This document shows, piece after piece, positions 3,396 through 40,715 of a stretch of DNA of 40,715 nt. The notes beneath the pieces are model-generated. The model was not told the DNA's origin, searched no databases, and was given only the letters and a program-made list of their open reading frames with translations. Source of the stretch: a virus. Lineage: Duplodnaviria > Heunggongvirae > Uroviricota > Caudoviricetes. Both the position numbers and the translations under genes were made by a program. The number at the start of each line of letters is the position of its first letter. Position 1 is the first letter of the stretch. The stretch is from the IMG/VR virus record IMGVR_UViG_2851933302_000004, one strand, 5' to 3'.

Positions 3396-6300
3396 AACGT
3401 TCTTCCAGAGACTGAACCCGCTCTTTTATCTTATCCATTTCTCTGCGCTGCCATGCTGCCTCGATATAGAATAAGAGATCAGGTCTGACCCCCCATCTAG
3501 ATCCTGCTGGCGTTATTTCAACGCGCTCAATGATGTCTTCTATTACCATCACTGGATTATCATCCTCATCAACAATGATGCTCCCGTCATTATCAGTCAG
3601 CGGCATTTCCCTTTGGCCAGTAATGACGTCATCATATACTGCGGGATAATCGTCATAGCAAAGAAAGGCATAGCGGCATGTTGTGCTTTCTTCTTCCATG
3701 AGTCCGTGAGAAATAAGAACATCACGAAGTTGCTGCGCGATTACACCATGATGTATCCTCGCCCCTTCTTCCCCCTTTATAGCGACAGCGTTCAGCCATT
3801 TATAAGCGATATACCTGACGTCACCCCAGGCATCCAGCAATGCTTCGTCAGGAGAGACCGGCTCTGTCTTTAATGTTCCGTCACTGGTAACCACAGGATT
3901 GGAGCCAAGATAAACTGTCGAGAACCTGTTTCCCGGACCACCAAGAGCATTTACATTATCAAGATAAGGTTTAACATCTCCGTTCTCAAAAAGATGTTCG
4001 AGTGCGTTATATACCGCGCGACGTGGAGTACTGCTTCCGGAACCATGCAACGTTATCATTGCACCATCTGCTGAAGACGTTGTTTCACCGCCGCTAACGA
4101 TTAATCTCTGAGCGGTAACATCATCAGACGGTACTTTCTTCGCAATAATGGCGTAATTACCCTCAAGTTTGACTTCCGCGCGAACTTGTCCTGATGTACC
4201 TGCATGGACAGTCAGTGACTGGACGGCAACATCATCTGTGAAATCAACGGGTACAGGAACCGTCCTCACGCCTGACGTCGACATAAAAGTAGGAAGCGTT
4301 CTGTTAGGAGTGGCTCCGTAGACAAAATCCCTTGAAACAAATTCTTCCTGTTTAATTTTCACCCTGAAACAATACAAATCAGCCGGGTGACCATCGTGAA
4401 CATAAGGATATTTTCTGTTGTTATCCCCTATGCTCCATGGGTTTAGAAAGTCTTCCCCACCGAAAATGTAGTACAGCCAGTTGTCTTTGATACAAACTGA
4501 ACCAACACCAACCGCAGAGTTAACTATTCCGCCCTGATAAATCTGATCAGTAACATTAACCCACTCTACATTATCCAGACTCCACTCATTGACGTTAACT
4601 CTGGTCATAAATGTTCTTGGATAATTTCCTGCATAACGGTTATCAGGTTCTCCTCCTTCCCACTCACCAAATGCGCGCTCACTGCCAAAAATAATCAGCT
4701 CATCGCCAACTTTGGCAAAAGGAAGGTTTGAGTGATGAACATTATTTGGGAAGCGAAGAGAATTCCATGATGTACCTAAATCAGAGCTTCTGTGCAATGA
4801 ACTACCGGGTTGAGTACTTAATGTCCCCCTGGTCGTCAGATACAGAATGCCATCATAATATTTTACACATGGCTCAGATGCATTCGCCTCATATTCTGCA
4901 GGTATGCGTCTGCGAACAAAGCTACCAGGAGAACCGAAAGCATCAGAGAAATAGAGTATCCCAAGCTCGCGTGGACCAATATCACCATTATGGTAGCCAA
5001 CAGCAAAACTGTTATCGCTAATCGTCGCAAAACTGTGAATCTCAGTAACAGGAGTGCTTCCGTCAACAAAAGAAGGAATAGTTCCAAGACTGGTTTTTCT
5101 CCATGGTGACGAGTGAAATGATGTACCAAAACTCCAGTATCTACCCTCGTTATTCTGATCCACATCCTGGGTATTTTGCGTCGTAACTGTAAAAGTATTT
5201 TTATCAATAACAGTAGTCACCGTCATATTCCCGGTAACACCTGTAACACCAGAGTTTGAGAAGTTGACAAAATCACCAGCAAATAATCCGTGATCAGTAA
5301 TGCGAATATAAGCGACTTGCTGATTTGCTGCTTTCGTTATACCACCATAAACGCGAAGGCTGCGACTCATTGGGCGATCCCACAACTCTGCAACCTGCAG
5401 TTTATTTCCGCTCACGGTCCGCGTCTCAATTACAGCAAAAAGGCGATTTCTGACAACCCCCATACTCATGCAGTGATAGTTAACTGTGGGATAGTTTTCA
5501 TGTAAATCTGTAAGCCATTCCGGCGTTGTCCAGGTCTTCCCGTCATCTCCTGAGCGAACCCATGCAACATGGAGGTTATTTACACCATGGCGGTCTCCAG
5601 CCATAAAAGGCGCATAGATGACATTGTCATATACAAACGTTTTATCCTGCGTCCAGGCGTTGTACCACGGTGTATCTGTAATTTTAAATAACTCTCCCTG
5701 GATAAAATCTTCAGAAGCATAAAAAAGAGGCTGGCCCGGTATTCTCTCAAATAAAAAACGAGCATTTTTAAATCGACTGACATCCGGAAGAGTTGATACT
5801 TTAAAAGTAAGCCCTAATCCGTCAATTTTATAACCTGGAGATGAGGCTTCAAGGCACGCGCTTATTGCAGTGGAATCGTCATTTATACCATCACCAACAG
5901 CTCCAAAATCTTTGGGGCTAATAGCATCACGCATTTTATCCTGGAACGTTCGGTACACAGCCCCAGAACCATACTGAATAAACCAACCAAAACCACCAAC
6001 AACCCCGGAGATTGCAGCATCGACATAATTACGCATTGAGCGATTATTTACAGCGTCCTGCTCAAATGATGGATCTGCAAGGTTAGAAATTTTGTTTTGC
6101 TTTGCATCGTAATATTTTGCAAGCAAAGATGGTTTCATCAATGCACGTCTGAACCACCCAAAACATTGCTGGATCAGCATCGTCAGGTAGTCAAAGGCAT
6201 CTTCATGCACTTCGGGGAAAAATTTTCCCTGATTGCGAAGGTCTGTCTCCTGCACTACATCAAGCACACGATCTATCGTAATTCGCCATCCAGTAGCAAG

Positions 6301-6513
6301 CGGAGACGGAAGAACCACAGAACCGCCACTATAAGTGCCCGCCCCAGTTACCGTATAACCGGTATCCAGAACCAATTCTGTTACGTTTCCGTTCAGGTCA
6401 GACACCTGAACAACCAGGTCTGATTTTCTGAAAACTCGAAAAGTATACGGAAACGATGTCGTAACGCCGTTACCGGTGTATTCGTTGTGGTCAACTTCGG
6501 TTGAGACCGTCAT
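3394..6513 (-). CDS. Tailspike with endo-N-acetylneuraminidase (endosialidase, K1 polysialic acid depolymerase) domain and C-terminal intramolecular chaperone (autoproteolytic) domain
   Basis: 1039 aa; central region (ERIPGQPLFYASEDF..ITDTPWYNAW..NYHCMSMGV..SGDDGKTW) closely parallels recalled endosialidase catalytic domains of K1 phages; C-terminal S-D-G-x-L-K segment typical of S74 chaperone domains; distinct N-terminal particle-binding domain. Confidence 0.85.
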   Translation of the reverse strand: MTVSTEVDHNEYTGNGVTTSFPYTFRVFRKSDLVVQVSDLNGNVTELVLDTGYTVTGAGTYSGGSVVLPSPLATGWRITIDRVLDVVQETDLRNQGKFFPEVHEDAFDYLTMLIQQCFGWFRRALMKPSLLAKYYDAKQNKISNLADPSFEQDAVNNRSMRNYVDAAISGVVGGFGWFIQYGSGAVYRTFQDKMRDAISPKDFGAVGDGINDDSTAISACLEASSPGYKIDGLGLTFKVSTLPDVSRFKNARFLFERIPGQPLFYASEDFIQGELFKITDTPWYNAWTQDKTFVYDNVIYAPFMAGDRHGVNNLHVAWVRSGDDGKTWTTPEWLTDLHENYPTVNYHCMSMGVVRNRLFAVIETRTVSGNKLQVAELWDRPMSRSLRVYGGITKAANQQVAYIRITDHGLFAGDFVNFSNSGVTGVTGNMTVTTVIDKNTFTVTTQNTQDVDQNNEGRYWSFGTSFHSSPWRKTSLGTIPSFVDGSTPVTEIHSFATISDNSFAVGYHNGDIGPRELGILYFSDAFGSPGSFVRRRIPAEYEANASEPCVKYYDGILYLTTRGTLSTQPGSSLHRSSDLGTSWNSLRFPNNVHHSNLPFAKVGDELIIFGSERAFGEWEGGEPDNRYAGNYPRTFMTRVNVNEWSLDNVEWVNVTDQIYQGGIVNSAVGVGSVCIKDNWLYYIFGGEDFLNPWSIGDNNRKYPYVHDGHPADLYCFRVKIKQEEFVSRDFVYGATPNRTLPTFMSTSGVRTVPVPVDFTDDVAVQSLTVHAGTSGQVRAEVKLEGNYAIIAKKVPSDDVTAQRLIVSGGETTSSADGAMITLHGSGSSTPRRAVYNALEHLFENGDVKPYLDNVNALGGPGNRFSTVYLGSNPVVTSDGTLKTEPVSPDEALLDAWGDVRYIAYKWLNAVAIKGEEGARIHHGVIAQQLRDVLISHGLMEEESTTCRYAFLCYDDYPAVYDDVITGQREMPLTDNDGSIIVDEDDNPVMVIEDIIERVEITPAGSRWGVRPDLLFYIEAAWQRREMDKIKERVQSLEER

Positions 6514-6617
6514 GTTAAATCTCCAGATAGTCGCAGCACCCGTTGCGCCGCATATCTGGTTATTCTATTACCTGGAAAACCACATATGGATAGAAAGGCT
6601 GTAAATACGAATAGATA

Positions 6618-6990: not shown

Positions 6991-7497
6991 TTAACAGTCG
7001 TAAAATTCCGGGTCCCACAAACTTGCATCGCGCGGCATGGATTCTAAATTTTTCAGCCGCAAAATTCTGTCACACTCGACAAGAAGTTTTTGTTTTTGTT
7101 CGTCAATTTCTACTTTTTTGTGTGCTGGCTCATCCCAGTAATCCAGAAGAAACGCATGTCGCTCAGACGTTACAAGATAAATCACATACACATCACTGGT
7201 TGGTATTTTTTTATGCTTGTTGGTGGTCTTGTCTTTCTTCCCGGATGCCCAGTTTTTCCAGCATTGTTCCGTACCGCTCTCACCAAACTTGTCAGTATAG
7301 TTTCCGATGTTTACGTGAACGTGGCGTATGTGATATTCCAGCATCTCTTTCGGTGGATCCCGAAACAGAGTGTCCTTTCCGAAATCCTTATGATGACCGT
7401 AGCGCCAGTGATCTATGAACGCGTTTTTGATAGGTATTAGCTCAGGGTCCTTCCCAAAAATTCCAGGGTGAACCAACCCCTGGAATTTATTCAGCAT
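6991..7497 (-). CDS. YafO-like toxin domain protein (candidate type II toxin or abortive-infection effector), AT-rich cargo
   Basis: ORF trimmed to ATG 7497; motifs FGKDTLFRD and HIRHVHVNIGN resemble the YafO family core (recalled); overlaps upstream gene by 11 bp. Confidence 0.4.
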   Translation of the reverse strand: MLNKFQGLVHPGIFGKDPELIPIKNAFIDHWRYGHHKDFGKDTLFRDPPKEMLEYHIRHVHVNIGNYTDKFGESGTEQCWKNWASGKKDKTTNKHKKIPTSDVYVIYLVTSERHAFLLDYWDEPAHKKVEIDEQKQKLLVECDRILRLKNLESMPRDASLWDPEFYDC

Positions 7498-7906
7498 CGT
7501 CGTAGAGCTCCTGAGCCATATCTTCGGCAGTGCGTGCAAACATCCTGCGCGAGATTGCATGAGATTTCTCGACGGACATCTTTGGGACCTCATGCATAAC
7601 ATTTTTGGGAGTTGTGTAATAGCCTATTACAATTTTCACACCTGACTTATGATTAATATCAGCATAATATACTTCTTGTTCAGACGTTTCACGACGAACA
7701 TAATCTGCCAGTTTTCCACATTTAAATTCCCCTCCCTGATGTTTTAAAATCTCCTCAACTGCACTATTTTCAGTGAAATACCGAATAAGAAATTTCTGTC
7801 CAGACTCTTCAGCATGAGGTATAACAGTATTATTGGAAGCCCGAACAATGGCCTTACTCAATATTTCATGGTCTTTATTTTTTTCTGATTTCCTCAAATG
7901 CTGCAT
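7487..7906 (-). CDS. Hypothetical protein with acidic C-terminal tail, upstream partner of the YafO-like gene (candidate antitoxin)
   Basis: ORF trimmed to ATG 7906; AT-rich; stop overlaps start of downstream gene. Confidence 0.4.
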   Translation of the reverse strand: MQHLRKSEKNKDHEILSKAIVRASNNTVIPHAEESGQKFLIRYFTENSAVEEILKHQGGEFKCGKLADYVRRETSEQEVYYADINHKSGVKIVIGYYTTPKNVMHEVPKMSVEKSHAISRRMFARTAEDMAQELYDDAE

Positions 7907-8067
7907 TACTGTAGCTCTCTTCGTGTTCACGGGCACCCCCAACTACCTCTAGGGTAAACATTCTATCGAAAGTATACGCATACTGGCAAAAAAATAGGCA
8001 GGTATTTTCTGAAATGGGATCAATCAAACCACATAGGGTTGAAATAACGTGAGTTATGCATTTATTA

Positions 8068-26745: not shown

Positions 26746-26822
26746 GTGGCATTAGCTCAGTTGGACAGAGCAACCGCCTTCTAAGCGGTTGGTCGCAGGT
26801 TCGAATCCTGCATGCCACGCCA
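26746..26822 (+). tRNA. tRNA-Arg (anticodon UCU), phage-encoded
   Basis: Cloverleaf folded by hand: 7-bp acceptor stem GTGGCAT/ATGCCAC, D-arm GCTC/GAGC, anticodon stem ACCGC/GCGGT with loop CTTCTAA, T-arm GCAGG-TTCGAAT-CCTGC, encoded CCA; resembles host argU with compensatory stem changes. Confidence 0.9.
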
Positions 26823-27020
26823 GAATCACGCCTAAGGACCGTGATGCCAGAAGTTCCAGGTGCTTGGCGGTGATGGTTTCCCTTGAAGGACTATCACCGC
26901 CCTTTTTACAGCAGGACGCCATTGCGATGACTTCATGCTGTAAACCCGTACAGCCACGGAAGGCATAACTCATTGCTTCCAGTTCGCCCGGTTCGCCGGG
27001 CATTTTTTTAAGGTGAGATC

Positions 27021-36022: not shown

Positions 36023-36225
36023 AACCAACACTCCTCTCATTGCTGCGAGGTGGAAAACACAGCATCCGAGATATGGCAAAGATTCTTGGTATCTCAAGAT
36101 CGAAGGTTTCTTGGTTCATCGCTGAGCTTGAACGTCGCAAATGGGTAGAGGTAACCAGGAGCGCAATATATTTCCACGATGGAACCCGTTCCAACAAGCA
36201 GAACGAATACAAGGTTAAGTTATGA
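36019..36225 (+). CDS. Small putative DNA-binding (HTH) protein
   Basis: 68 aa; IRDMAKILGISRSKVSWFI helix-turn-helix-like segment. Confidence 0.45.
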   Translation: MKPTLLSLLRGGKHSIRDMAKILGISRSKVSWFIAELERRKWVEVTRSAIYFHDGTRSNKQNEYKVKL

Positions 36226-37043
36226 ATACTGGCATCTATTTCGACATCAGCAATGAGGACTACCACGCCGGTGACGGCGTGAGTAAGTCGCAACTGGACA
36301 TGGTTGCCAAGAATCCGGCGCTTCTTAAATGGGTTCAGGCAGCACCAGAAGACGAAGAGAAAAAGTCTGCACTGGATATGGGAACCGCATTGCACTGTCT
36401 GCTTCTGGAGCCTAGAGAGTTCGACAAACGCTTCATTGTTTCACCGAAATTCGATCGTCGGACGAAACAAGGTAAAGCTGACGAAGAGGCATTTCTTCGT
36501 GATGTGGCGGATATGGGGATTACGGTACTTGATGCCGAGCAGTGGCGGAAACTGGAACTGATGCGTGATAGCGCAATGGCTCACCCGGCGGCACGCTGGA
36601 TGTTGGAAGCACCTGGTTACTGCGAAGCGTCAATGTACTGGAACGATGAAGAAACGGGTGAGTTGTGCCGAATTCGTCCAGACAAATGGCTGAACGAGCA
36701 CAACGTGATCATCGACGTGAAAAAGGTTGCAGATATGGACCGTTTTGCACGTCACATCGAGGAATTCCGCTACCACGTGCAGGACGCAATGTACCGCGAA
36801 GGCGCAATGAGGGTTACTGGTCAGCCGCATGGTTTTTTCTTTCTTGCCGTGAGCGAAAGCATTGATTGTGGTCGGTATCCGGTACGCGTGTTCGAGCTGG
36901 ATGCGCCGGATGTCGATGCCGGGCACGCTCTGTTCCGCCGGGATCTGAATACCTATCACGAATGCCGCATCAACGATGAGTGGGGCGGAGTGGAAATTAT
37001 TAAACGCCCTGACTGGGCACGTAAACAGGATATGTACGTATGA
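36222..37043 (+). CDS. PD-(D/E)XK exonuclease-like recombination protein
   Basis: 273 aa; IIDVKK motif; paired with downstream annealing protein. Confidence 0.55.
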   Translation: MNTGIYFDISNEDYHAGDGVSKSQLDMVAKNPALLKWVQAAPEDEEKKSALDMGTALHCLLLEPREFDKRFIVSPKFDRRTKQGKADEEAFLRDVADMGITVLDAEQWRKLELMRDSAMAHPAARWMLEAPGYCEASMYWNDEETGELCRIRPDKWLNEHNVIIDVKKVADMDRFARHIEEFRYHVQDAMYREGAMRVTGQPHGFFFLAVSESIDCGRYPVRVFELDAPDVDAGHALFRRDLNTYHECRINDEWGGVEIIKRPDWARKQDMYV

Positions 37044-37921
37044 GCAATGATATCGCAATCACATCACAACCAGGCGCAACTGTAGGCACTGCTGCGGCAA
37101 TCTTCAGCCCCGAGGGAATGAATCAACTGGTGCGTTTCGCTGAGTTGATGTCACAAAGCAAAGCGACTGTACCGAAACATCTTGAAGGCAAACCTGCCGA
37201 TTGCCTGGCGGTGACCATGCAGGCGGCACAGTGGGGAATGAACCCTTTCGCCGTGGCGCAGAAAACGCATGTGGTAAACGGAACGTTAGGCTACGAAGCA
37301 CAGTTGGTAAACGCGGTCGTATCCTCGTCAAGCCTGCTGGCGACACGCCTGAATTATCGCTGGAGCGGTGACTGGTCGAATGTTAACGGCAAAACAGATA
37401 AATCACCGAATCTGACGGTAACTGTGTCAGCAGTTCTTAAAGGAGAAGCAGAACCACGTGAGCTTACCATCAGTATGGCGCAAGCCGGAGTGCGTAACTC
37501 TCCATTGTGGGAACAGGATCCGCGCCAGCAGCTTGCCTATCTTTGCACGAAACGATGGGCTCGCCTGCACGCTCCTGATGTACTTCTCGGTGTTTACACA
37601 CCAGACGAATTACAGGAAACGGCACCGCGCGTTGAGCGAGACATTACTCCGCAAACTACCACTGCTGCGGGAATGAACAGTCTGATCAACGCTAAAACAG
37701 TGAAAAAGCCTGATGAGCAAACGCGTAAAGCGGATAGCCGTGATCCAGAAGAAATGCTGATGGCCTTTACCAGCGCAGCGATGAATTACAGCACTGTCTC
37801 CGAACTGGATAAGGCTTACAAATACATTGCACAAAAACTTTCAGATGATGACGAACTGCTGGCAAAAGCCACCGACGTTTACAGCGTTCGTCGGGAAGAA
37901 TTAAACGAAACATCTATGTAA
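37040..37921 (+). CDS. Single-strand annealing protein, Red-beta/RecT superfamily
   Basis: 293 aa; C-terminal region resembles recalled lambda Bet (shared ERDITP segment). Confidence 0.6.
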   Translation: MSNDIAITSQPGATVGTAAAIFSPEGMNQLVRFAELMSQSKATVPKHLEGKPADCLAVTMQAAQWGMNPFAVAQKTHVVNGTLGYEAQLVNAVVSSSSLLATRLNYRWSGDWSNVNGKTDKSPNLTVTVSAVLKGEAEPRELTISMAQAGVRNSPLWEQDPRQQLAYLCTKRWARLHAPDVLLGVYTPDELQETAPRVERDITPQTTTAAGMNSLINAKTVKKPDEQTRKADSRDPEEMLMAFTSAAMNYSTVSELDKAYKYIAQKLSDDDELLAKATDVYSVRREELNETSM

Positions 37922-37970: not shown

Positions 37971-38219
37971 ATGAAAGGTGCATTAGGTAAGAAGGAACTC
38001 CTGGCGGTGGTGCCACTGTCATGGAGCACTATCGACCGTATGGAGCGCGCAGGGGAATTTCCTAAACGCTGGTATATCACTGACAAACGCTGTGCATGGA
38101 ACCGTGACGAAGTTGAGCGTTGGCTTGATGAACGTCAGGCAGCAAGCCCGGCAGAGTTCCAGGGTAAAAAACCTCCTGTTCAGCAACGTGTATATCGTCC
38201 CGTGAGCAACGCTGCATGA
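37971..38219 (+). CDS. AlpA-like small DNA-binding protein (excisionase/regulator family)
   Basis: 82 aa; LLAVVPLSWSTIDRMERAGEFPK..WNRDEVERWL matches AlpA-type pattern; AGAGAGG RBS. Confidence 0.6.
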   Translation: MKGALGKKELLAVVPLSWSTIDRMERAGEFPKRWYITDKRCAWNRDEVERWLDERQAASPAEFQGKKPPVQQRVYRPVSNAA

Positions 38220-38328
38220 GTGCGCTGCTAAGGCACTGGAGCAAATGGTCAGGATGGTACTTATTCCTGGCCTCTGTTTCAGCATGGCTTTATCTGCTGG
38301 CATTAATTTTCAGAGAGGGTTGGATTAA

Positions 38329-38628
38329 GTGAGAAAGTTAAGCCGACTTGAAAAATATCACATGAATAAGGTTTCAATGCGCAGTCCGTCAAAGATTGTC
38401 GCCGTTACTCCTGCGGCGATAGAGATCGAAAAACGCGCGATTGAAAGAGAGAAAAAAGGGCAGTTCCGCATTGCCGCTCACCTTTGGCTTCAGTGTATGG
38501 ATGTTGCTTCTGGTGATGTTGAACGTGCAAGGATCGCGGTTCGCAGGGACCAATGTATCACAAAAGGTAACGGCCTTCGCCGTGGCGACTATAGCGGCAT
38601 AGGATGTTGTGGGGTGGTTTATGACTAA
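38329..38628 (+). CDS. Hypothetical protein
   Basis: 99 aa ORF. Confidence 0.4.
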   Translation: MRKLSRLEKYHMNKVSMRSPSKIVAVTPAAIEIEKRAIEREKKGQFRIAAHLWLQCMDVASGDVERARIAVRRDQCITKGNGLRRGDYSGIGCCGVVYD

Positions 38629-39270
38629 GAAATACACACTAATCTATGCAGATCCACCCTGGGTATACCGGGACAAAGCCGCAGATGGTAATCGCGGTGC
38701 CGGTTTTAAATATCCGGTTATGAGTGTGCTGGATATCTGCCGCCTTCCTGTGTGGGATTTGGCCGATGAAAACTGTCTGTTGGCCATGTGGTGGGTGCCA
38801 ACACAACCACTCGAAGCACTAAAAGTTGTTGAAGCCTGGGGATTCCGTCTGATGACGATGAAGGGCTTCACGTGGATAAAATGTGGTAGTCGACAACCAG
38901 ATAAACTTGTTATGGGTATGGGACACATGACTCGCGCCAATAGTGAAGATTGCCTGTTTGCGGTAAAGGGAAACTACCTCCGCGCATTAATGCAGGGATC
39001 GTTCAGTCATTTACCGCACCGCGGCTTGAGCACTCAAGAAAACCAGATGTCGTTCGTGAAAAACTTGTGCAATTGTTAGGCGATGTTTCTCGCATTGAAC
39101 TATTCGCCCGCCAGTCGTCTCATGGCTTCGATGTTTGGGGTAATCAGTGCGAAGACCCGGCAGTGCAACTACACCCTGGATACGCGTTGGATATTGGCGG
39201 ATTAACAAATGCATTCAGCATTTCTCCGCTGTCACCAACAGACAACCAGGGGCGGGAGCGTGCTGCATGA
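38621..39270 (+). pseudogene. MT-A70-family DNA N6-adenine methyltransferase, interrupted by a 1-nt frameshift near 38965..38973
   Basis: N-terminal ORF has IYADPPWVY motif; C-terminal part (RLEHSRKPD..IELFARQ..DVWGNQ) continues in a different frame from about 38962; shift maps to short A/G homopolymer. Confidence 0.65.
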
Positions 39271-39461
39271 ACAGGGCATCACCAGCAGATTTAAGAAAAT
39301 GCCTTGAAACTGCAAACATGCTTGCACACAGCGGGATCAGGTTTGTTCCAATTCCCGCCGTCACTGATGCTGAATTTGCAACACTGTCAGCAATATTCGA
39401 AAACAAAATTGAATCACTGGCAGCAGAAGCAGAGATGGAAGAAAATCAGCAGAACTATTAA
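39267..39461 (+). CDS. Hypothetical small protein
   Basis: ORF 39147..39461 trimmed to ATG 39267 overlapping methyltransferase stop (ATGA). Confidence 0.35.
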   Translation: MNRASPADLRKCLETANMLAHSGIRFVPIPAVTDAEFATLSAIFENKIESLAAEAEMEENQQNY

Positions 39462-39464
39462 ACG

Positions 39465-40715
39465 TTATTCCCCCGCCATCCACTTCTCAAACTTCGACGG
39501 GGAGAACGGAATCAGATCCGTATGCTCCCCGTTAATCCAGGAATCAATCATATCGGCCCACTGCTGCAACATGTAGGCGCGCTGTCTGGCGTATTCCGCT
39601 TTGTTATATACGGCGCGCACACCTTTCTGCTCATGTGCCAGAGCCTTTTCAATCCAGTCTGAAGGATAACCAGCCTCATGCAACAACGTACTGGCTGTAC
39701 GGCGCATATCGTGTACGGTGAAGCCCTGAATATGCTCACCATCTTCATTTATTATTTTCACCGTTCTGTCGATCAGAGAGTTCAGCGCGGCATTAGATAA
39801 TGGCTTCCGGAAATTGTAACGACCAGGAACCAGATATTCACTTCCACCAGCGCACATCTGCAACCCAACCAATATATCCTGTGCCTGTTTAGGCAGGTAA
39901 ATAACGTGCGCCCGGCTTCCCTTCATGCGGTCTGAAGGAATTGTCCATGTCCATTTTTTAAAATCTATTTCATCCCACGTTGCATTGGTGAATTCGCCTT
40001 TACGAACCATAGTGATAAGCACCAGCTTTAAAGCCATTTTCATAGTGCCCATAGCACCAATGGCATCCAGCGTGCGGAAGAACAGGCCAATTTCTTCTGG
40101 TGTCAGTGTTCGCTCTCGTGGTTTAAATATGGCGATAGACGAAGGTTTAATGTCAGCCGCAGGATTAAACAAACCATGACCACGGTCATTGGCGTGACGG
40201 TATACGCTGCTGATGATCTCCCTGGCCTGTACTGCTGTTGCCCGACCACCGCGTTCGACAATCCGGTCACACAAATCACGAACCATCGATGTGGTAATTT
40301 CAGCCATCATTTTGTTGCCAAGAACCGGAAGTATGTCACGGTCGATCACCGCCTGCTTCATTGCGCGGGTACTGTCAGCCAGGATGACGTGTTTCATATA
40401 ACTGTCGGTATGTACCGCAAACGTCTCGGCACCACGAATCTTTTTGATACCGTCACGTTTAGCCGCAGCCGGCGACTGGCCTGCTTTAAGCAGCTTCTTT
40501 GCAGCAATCAGTTCTTCTCGCGCTTCTGCCAGGCTGATACCGTCACGCCCATACTGCCCGATTACCAGTGTTTCGCGGCGACCGTTGATACGGTAGTCAT
40601 AGCGAAACGAGACCGTGCCTGACGTAAGCACAGCTACATACAGCCCGTCACGATCGGAGACCTTGTACAGTTTGTCCTGCGGCTTGAGGTTTTTTAATTT
40701 TGTATCGGTAAGCAC
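39465..40715 (-). CDS. Tyrosine integrase (P4-like family); N-terminus at or just beyond the window edge
   Basis: 416 aa; N-terminal LTDTKLKNLKP..LYVAV..SFRYDYR pattern and C-terminal catalytic segments; the first codon at the window edge is GTG. Confidence 0.85.
   Translation of the reverse strand: MLTDTKLKNLKPQDKLYKVSDRDGLYVAVLTSGTVSFRYDYRINGRRETLVIGQYGRDGISLAEAREELIAAKKLLKAGQSPAAAKRDGIKKIRGAETFAVHTDSYMKHVILADSTRAMKQAVIDRDILPVLGNKMMAEITTSMVRDLCDRIVERGGRATAVQAREIISSVYRHANDRGHGLFNPAADIKPSSIAIFKPRERTLTPEEIGLFFRTLDAIGAMGTMKMALKLVLITMVRKGEFTNATWDEIDFKKWTWTIPSDRMKGSRAHVIYLPKQAQDILVGLQMCAGGSEYLVPGRYNFRKPLSNAALNSLIDRTVKIINEDGEHIQGFTVHDMRRTASTLLHEAGYPSDWIEKALAHEQKGVRAVYNKAEYARQRAYMLQQWADMIDSWINGEHTDLIPFSPSKFEKWMAGE

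Follow-up and report, generated by a model that had tools for sequence, protein, structure and literature searches.

A one-nucleotide deletion splits the MT-A70 adenine methyltransferase gene of a prophage in the Escherichia coli IHE3034 meningitis lineage

We are highly confident that the MT-A70 gene in a prophage of the Escherichia coli IHE3034 meningitis lineage carries a genuine, vertically inherited deletion of one nucleotide and that it is now a pseudogene of a class-beta N6-adenine DNA methyltransferase. The window, that is, the whole stretch of 40,715 nucleotides analysed here, was 100% identical across the region to the genome of IHE3034 (NC_017628.1), a human ExPEC (O18:K1, ST complex 95; PMC4232414). 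The frameshift as such is already known: RefSeq lists the same locus of IHE3034 as ECOK1_RS14875 (100% identity) and interprets it in the same way, as an 'MT-A70 family methyltransferase' pseudogene marked 'frameshifted'. Our analysis adds the exact lesion, its distribution among genomes and an assessment of a heptamer at the lesion that has the form of a frameshift site. The case is one of ordinary prophage gene decay, and nothing in it departs from such decay.

Position and nature of the lesion

A preliminary description of this DNA had placed an MT-A70 gene at 38621..39270 (+), split between two frames that meet at a short A/G run at 38965..38973. The split was borne out by the sequence, the list of open reading frames (ORFs) and Pfam, and alignments with orthologues placed the lesion exactly in that run. 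The first ORF extends from an ATG at 38621 (with an alternative GTG at 38609) to a TAG at 39077-39079; it begins MTKKYTLIYADPPW and reads MTKKYTLIYADPPWVYRDK. The second ORF lies in the -1 frame, is open over 38950..39270 and ends with a TGA at 39268-39270; it carries RLEHSRKPD and ELFARQ and reads KLPPRINAGIVQSFTAPRLEHSRKPD and then IELFARQSSHGFDVWGNQ. A frame split of this kind is far beyond what chance would give.

For the DNA alignment of the lesion, the window was compared with EC21Z-144, phiV10 and MFDS1019527, the last of which is the closest intact allele (99.7% identical). The run at the junction is AAAGGGAAA (38965-38973), and the orthologues have one more A. The lesion, which is observed directly in these alignments, is a 1-nt deletion that shortened four A's to three (38971-38973), the orthologues having GGGAAAAC where the window has GGGAAAC (38968-38974). 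In codons, the intact genes read GTA AAG GGA AAA CTA CCT, whereas the window reads GTA AAG GGA AAC TAC CTC. Restoring one A gives a frame of 216 aa as in the orthologues. Following the A4 to A3 deletion, translation from the ATG at 38621 would leave the native frame after residue 117 and end at 39077-39079, and the truncated product of 152 aa consists of 117 native residues followed by 35 out-of-frame ones. The coordinates of the features are given in Table 1.

Table 1. Features of the methyltransferase locus and its neighbours, in window positions
Feature	Position	Strand	Basis
PerC-family regulator gene	38377..38628	+	RefSeq annotation, ORF list; stop overlaps methyltransferase start
Native N-terminal part, codons 1-117 (M1..G117)	38621..38971	+	translation; no difference from intact orthologues through G117
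Catalytic motif IV DPPW, residues 11-14	38651..38662	+	read in sequence
Lesion GGGAAAC / in-phase heptamer G_GGA_AAC	38968..38974	+	DNA alignments; phase from ATG 38621
Out-of-frame tail, 35 codons (NYLRALMQ...NLCNC), then TAG 39077-39079	38972..39079	+	translations
C-terminal remnant, native codons L119..A216 + TGA; HSRKP, ELFAR, WGNQ	38974..39270	+ (-1 frame)	ORF 38950..39270, Pfam
T, against A in 3/3 intact alleles aligned nucleotide by nucleotide (AAT to ATT, N201I, untranslated remnant)	39221	+	pairwise comparisons
DUF1382 gene	39267..39461	+	RefSeq annotation, sequence; ATG overlaps native methyltransferase stop (ATGA 39267-39270)
P4-type tyrosine integrase	39465..40715	-	marks prophage end adjoining guaA

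Apart from the lesion, the window gene is very close to its intact relatives, being 98-99.7% identical in DNA to hundreds of intact orthologues of 651 nt. Relative to MFDS1019527, the sole other difference in the gene is the A to T change at 39221 (N201I), and the pairwise comparisons with intact alleles link this substitution to the frameshift lineage. PhiV10p33 (YP_512288.1, putative adenine methylase / DNA methyltransferase) and the prophage proteins WP_024238907.1 and WP_023152120.1 are orthologues in the same gene position, with DNA identities to the window copy of 98.2-99.7% and the same DPPW motif; unlike them, the window copy is one A short, is divided between two frames and has N201I in its remnant. 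The methyltransferase region as a whole showed 98.2% identity to phiV10. Of the 17 matching phage records, 15 cover one extra base relative to the query, and wherever a phage record annotates the gene, it gives a single intact gene, e.g. 'adenine methylase'.

Domain architecture and predicted loss of activity

The name MT-A70 adenine methyltransferase, which the preliminary description had given to the gene, proved right, both halves scoring above the gathering cut-off of Pfam MT-A70 (PF05063; 23.9 bits). The N fragment of the window covers positions 1-116 of the 172 of the profile (54.6 bits) and the C fragment positions 128-172 (25.3 bits), while an intact orthologue matches positions 1-172 of 172 in one piece with 78.6 bits. 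The break, which can be read directly from this division of the profile, falls inside the single catalytic domain. In class-beta amino-methyltransferases, motif IV (DPPY/W) is followed by the TRD and then by motif I, which binds SAM, and the consensus of the catalytic motif IV is (D/N/S)PP(Y/F/W) (PMC7544214). The DPPW at residues 11-14 agrees with this consensus. The order IV-TRD-I is kept in the DNA but no longer in one polypeptide, F162/R164 and WGNQ now lying in the -1 frame. Since no single polypeptide has both DPPW and the cofactor-binding part, the gene is to be counted among the pseudogenes of the MT-A70 family and not among its functional members.

A search of the PDB revealed that the closest solved relatives of the phage enzyme are ciliate MTA1 (E ~4e-13) and human METTL3 (E ~4e-6). 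In the latter match, query residues 4-167 align with METTL3 388-539, with D11-W14 at D395-W398 and F162/R164 at F534/R536. The DPPW motif is catalytic (PMC5023411, PMC7544214). METTL3 holds SAM via H512/K513, F534, R536, H538, N549 and Q550, and its activity is abolished by N549A/Q550A (PMC5023411). Judging from the motif, N175 and Q176 of the phage enzyme, which lie past the aligned stretch, would be the counterparts of N549 and Q550. In the phage enzyme, the counterparts of the METTL3 SAM contacts are the HSRKP, ELFAR and WGNQ segments, all of which come after residue 118. MTA1 (PDB 7f4r, 7f4l, 7yi8) and METTL3 (5il0 and 6ttp, among others) have in common with the phage enzyme the PF05063 catalytic domain, the position of DPPW and cofactor contacts of the ELFAR and WGNQ types in the C-terminal part. 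However, the homology is distant (E 4e-13 to 5e-5), and MTA1 and METTL3 are heterodimers with accessory subunits that act on eukaryotic DNA or RNA, whereas the phage protein is a bare domain of 216 aa. The phage enzyme is presumed to act on DNA; our literature search found no characterised target or role for a methyltransferase of the phiV10 type.

From these comparisons, the C-terminal SAM-binding half (HSRKP loop, ELFAR and WGNQ) would be left untranslated, and the truncated product should be inactive, keeping the DPPW motif for the substrate adenine and losing the cofactor site together with part of the fold. Because the cofactor-binding half would not be translated, the domain architecture predicts that the truncated product cannot methylate and that the gene is a pseudogene; it is from this that we infer the loss of activity.

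Two families in PHROGs v4 correspond to the two pieces of the gene. The frameshifted product (38621-39076) is matched end to end, out-of-frame tail included, by phrog_15877 (152 positions, 349.9 bits), and phrog_16888 (67 positions) is the C-terminal remnant (39067-39270). The fragments of a pseudogene have thus been clustered as separate phage 'families', and frameshifted genes contaminate family collections in this way.

Alternative explanations and the distribution of the deletion

Among the explanations other than gene loss, functional recoding, in which a -1 slip on G_GGA_AAC makes an active K118N methyltransferase, whether the slip is programmed or amounts to 'translational correction' of the indel, fares best and is nonetheless very unlikely. 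A slippery site had been one of the possibilities raised in the preliminary description, and the part of it that stands is the sequence itself: the deletion created an in-phase heptamer of the form X_XXY_YYZ, G_GGA_AAC (38968-38974), whose register is that of the frame opened by the ATG at 38621, and a -1 slip there enters the native C-terminal frame exactly and gives a full-length product with K118N as its sole change. The efficiency of this heptamer in E. coli has been measured by Sharma et al. 2014 (PMC4066793), whose reporter values, obtained in another sequence context, are 0.164 ± 0.004% when no stimulator is present, 0.222% when the IS911 stimulators are added and, for the strong IS3 pseudoknot, still only 0.888%. 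With a background of ~0.04-0.07%, GGGAAAC is weakly frameshift-prone, at ~3 times background (Sharma et al. 2014, PMC4066793). At the unstimulated value of ~0.16%, full-length protein would come from at most about 1 ribosome in 600.

The surroundings of the heptamer argue in the same direction. First, the downstream 86 nt showed no stimulatory fold: their minimum free energy was -16 kcal/mol, shuffled sequences averaged -19.1 (z = +0.96), and 167 of the 200 shuffles folded at least as well. Second, inspection of the 20 nt upstream (38948-38967) revealed no SD-like element of the GGAG/AGGA type. Third, the two-frame arrangement is not conserved among diverged orthologues, the annotated phage orthologues and the other genomes listed being single-frame; the site is owed to the deletion and belongs to a single lineage of four near-identical complete genomes. 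Fourth, non-synonymous changes (D22N and others) have accumulated in the frameshifted allele, as expected without selection. Thus, the window has the heptamer whose frameshifting was measured (PMC4066793), in phase, but has it without stimulator or conservation, as a by-product of the deletion and not as an evolved signal. A programmed or conserved frameshift was rejected on these grounds, the orthologues being single-frame, the downstream structure being absent and the heptamer ranking among the weak ones. We also considered that trace amounts of full-length enzyme, made by the slip after induction, might produce a low level of methylation and that such residual activity may ease the persistence of the allele in the meningitis lineage; we give this idea only a slim chance.

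The preferred reading, an inherited inactivating deletion, accounts for the distribution among genomes. The gene was present in 537 of 5,426 complete E. coli genomes, and a 51-nt probe laid over the deletion had a perfect match in only four of the complete genomes (IHE3034, N1, N21 and N54); the remaining records among the probe matches listed had the length with one base more. N1, N21 and N54 are isolates from CSF, with chromosomes of 5.10, 5.21 and 5.14 Mb, respectively; they carry the identical deletion, and all are annotated as frameshifted at this gene. Over the 6.68 kb compared, they differ from IHE3034 by 2-3 SNPs, among which is D22N (GAT to AAT, 38684), a change that is common to the three isolates and lies within the already frameshifted gene. 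In addition, an exact-sequence look-up found the truncated protein on at least 111 public contigs (NCBI, ENA, Logan and JGI). The 156-aa product called from the GTG start was found in its IHE3034 form on 59 contigs and in its D22N form on 52 contigs, 152-aa calls of the truncated product added a further 39 and 31 contigs, and several variants occurred on single contigs. The variants include D22N, W to R, I to T, C to Y, G to S and V to D, always with the same out-of-frame tail. The intact protein, by comparison, belongs to a 90%-identity cluster of 2,905 members, one of which is found on 576 contigs.

Both the inheritance of the deletion and its rarity are directly visible in these records. 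Because the deletion is present in four near-identical genomes and in many contigs with secondary variants, it is real and was inherited from a single event, and the sequences indicate that it has been handed down in one lineage and has diversified slightly since. The secondary changes in the frameshifted allele are consistent with drift after inactivation. The exact sequence of a 'repaired' protein with I201 was absent from a collection of 15 billion proteins, which fits an origin of N201I on the pseudogene and the lack of any observed reversion. The preliminary description had proposed a recent inactivating mutation. Its inactivating character was supported, while 'recent' needs qualification, the allele being near-clonal and yet present in more than 100 assemblies with secondary substitutions. 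The same description had regarded a two-ORF arrangement shared by orthologues as an argument against its own reading; this arrangement was found only in near-identical copies and in no diverged orthologue.

A sequencing or assembly error, which the preliminary description had also suggested and under which the true genome would have four A's and an intact gene, was excluded by the same data and keeps a negligible probability. Homopolymer indels are a common class of error, and the IHE3034 record alone could not have excluded one. However, a run of 3-4 nt is not especially error-prone. The same deletion is present in N1, N21 and N54, which were assembled independently, and the truncated ORF occurs on all the contigs found by the look-up; the linked SNP at 39221 and the secondary substitutions mark a real, evolving lineage.

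We find it scarcely credible that the A run serves as a contingency tract by which the methyltransferase is switched between on and off states, in the manner of the phase-variable Mod genes. The lesion does lie within a homopolymer of a DNA methyltransferase gene, but the tract is 4 nt long (3 in the window), and tracts that slip at useful rates are far longer than 4 nt. In addition, the off state occurs in one lineage in which it is identical by descent, as seen from the linked SNP and the 2-3 SNPs per 6.68 kb, and no reversion was seen in that lineage, the exact repaired protein being missing from the protein collection. A contingency gene would be expected to have a long tract with recurrent changes of length; what was found is a change from A4 to A3 in a single event.

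It is just as improbable that the locus encodes a split enzyme, with both the N and the C fragment being produced and coming together as an active methyltransferase. Both halves stay open frames, and the C remnant is sometimes called as an ORF of 67-106 aa. However, the only start of the C remnant is the TTG at 38950, which has no evident ribosome-binding site and lies 129 nt upstream of the stop of the N frame, so that coupling by termination and reinitiation is not possible. Moreover, the break is within a single catalytic domain, and the arrangement is found in no diverged orthologue. Transcriptional slippage was rejected as well, since it needs tracts far longer than the three A's present here.

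Prophage context and consequences

The methyltransferase gene is located near one end of a prophage of ~39 kb, inserted between yfgI and guaA in IHE3034, which we call phiV10/epsilon15-like from its gene order and from the similarity of its early-left, integrase and lysis regions. The local order is a PD-(D/E)XK nuclease, RecT, an AlpA-like HTH protein, a PerC-family regulator, the methyltransferase, DUF1382 and a convergent P4-type integrase; phage phiV10 (Uetakevirus) has the same gene order in its early-left region and integrase. At the opposite end of the prophage are the lysis genes (holin, endolysin and a DUF2514/Rz-like protein). The only other prophage gene that RefSeq marks as a pseudogene is a partial ead/Ea22-like gene, and the prophage looks largely intact.

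The stop of the PerC gene overlaps the start of the methyltransferase gene, which indicates that the two belong to the same operon. A scan of 38200-39600 for promoters and terminators detected neither a promoter-like site nor a terminator on the plus strand, and together with the stop/start overlaps at both ends of the gene this indicates one cistron of the early-left operon. We infer that the methyltransferase is a member of an early-left recombination operon comprising the nuclease, RecT, AlpA-like, PerC, methyltransferase and DUF1382 genes. With no signals of its own in evidence, the gene is probably transcribed from an early promoter further upstream; its expression is likely to come with induction and not during lysogeny, and as a member of this operon it would matter chiefly once the prophage is induced. 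The premature stop lies 188 nt upstream of the start of DUF1382 and may uncouple the translation of the latter; translational coupling of DUF1382 has probably been lost in the frameshifted allele. In a search of NCBIfam, no model was found for the methyltransferase or for DUF1382. The PerC-family regulator (38377-38628, +) showed a sub-threshold match to the NCBIfam ANR negative-regulator family (24.2 bits against a cut-off of 32).

If the prediction from the domain architecture is correct, this lineage of prophages, resident in K1 meningitis E. coli, no longer has an adenine methyltransferase of its own. On induction of the prophage, the DNA of progeny phage would then enter new hosts without methylation protection from restriction, and phage released from strains of the frameshift lineage should lack the protective mark of this methyltransferase. 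In methylome studies of such strains, no motif is expected from this gene, and methylation calling in an uninduced lysogen might be uninformative even for the intact allele. Beyond correct annotation, the loss matters little.

Several other features of the prophage were observed. For the tailspike gene (3419-6538, -), RefSeq gives the product WP_000218919.1 as an 'endosialidase catalytic beta-propeller domain-containing protein', so that, by annotation, an epsilon15/phiV10-like prophage with a spike that degrades the K1 capsule resides in a K1 meningitis strain; a literature search found no paper describing the IHE3034 prophage or an endosialidase tailspike of this kind. Adjoining the tailspike are a gene of a YafO-family type II toxin and a small upstream ORF (7016-7955, -), which are probably a moron or a toxin-antitoxin pair within the prophage. 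A second frame difference among relatives was noted in the recombination genes: the nuclease and RecT of phiV10 are annotated as one fusion ORF of 586 aa (PhiV10p37), whereas two overlapping ORFs encode them in the window (36222-37043 and 37040-37921, +) and also in other prophages, with 96% and 79% identity to the respective halves of PhiV10p37. Finally, a tRNA-Arg gene is annotated in the prophage at 26771-26847 (+), between the portal and terminase regions.
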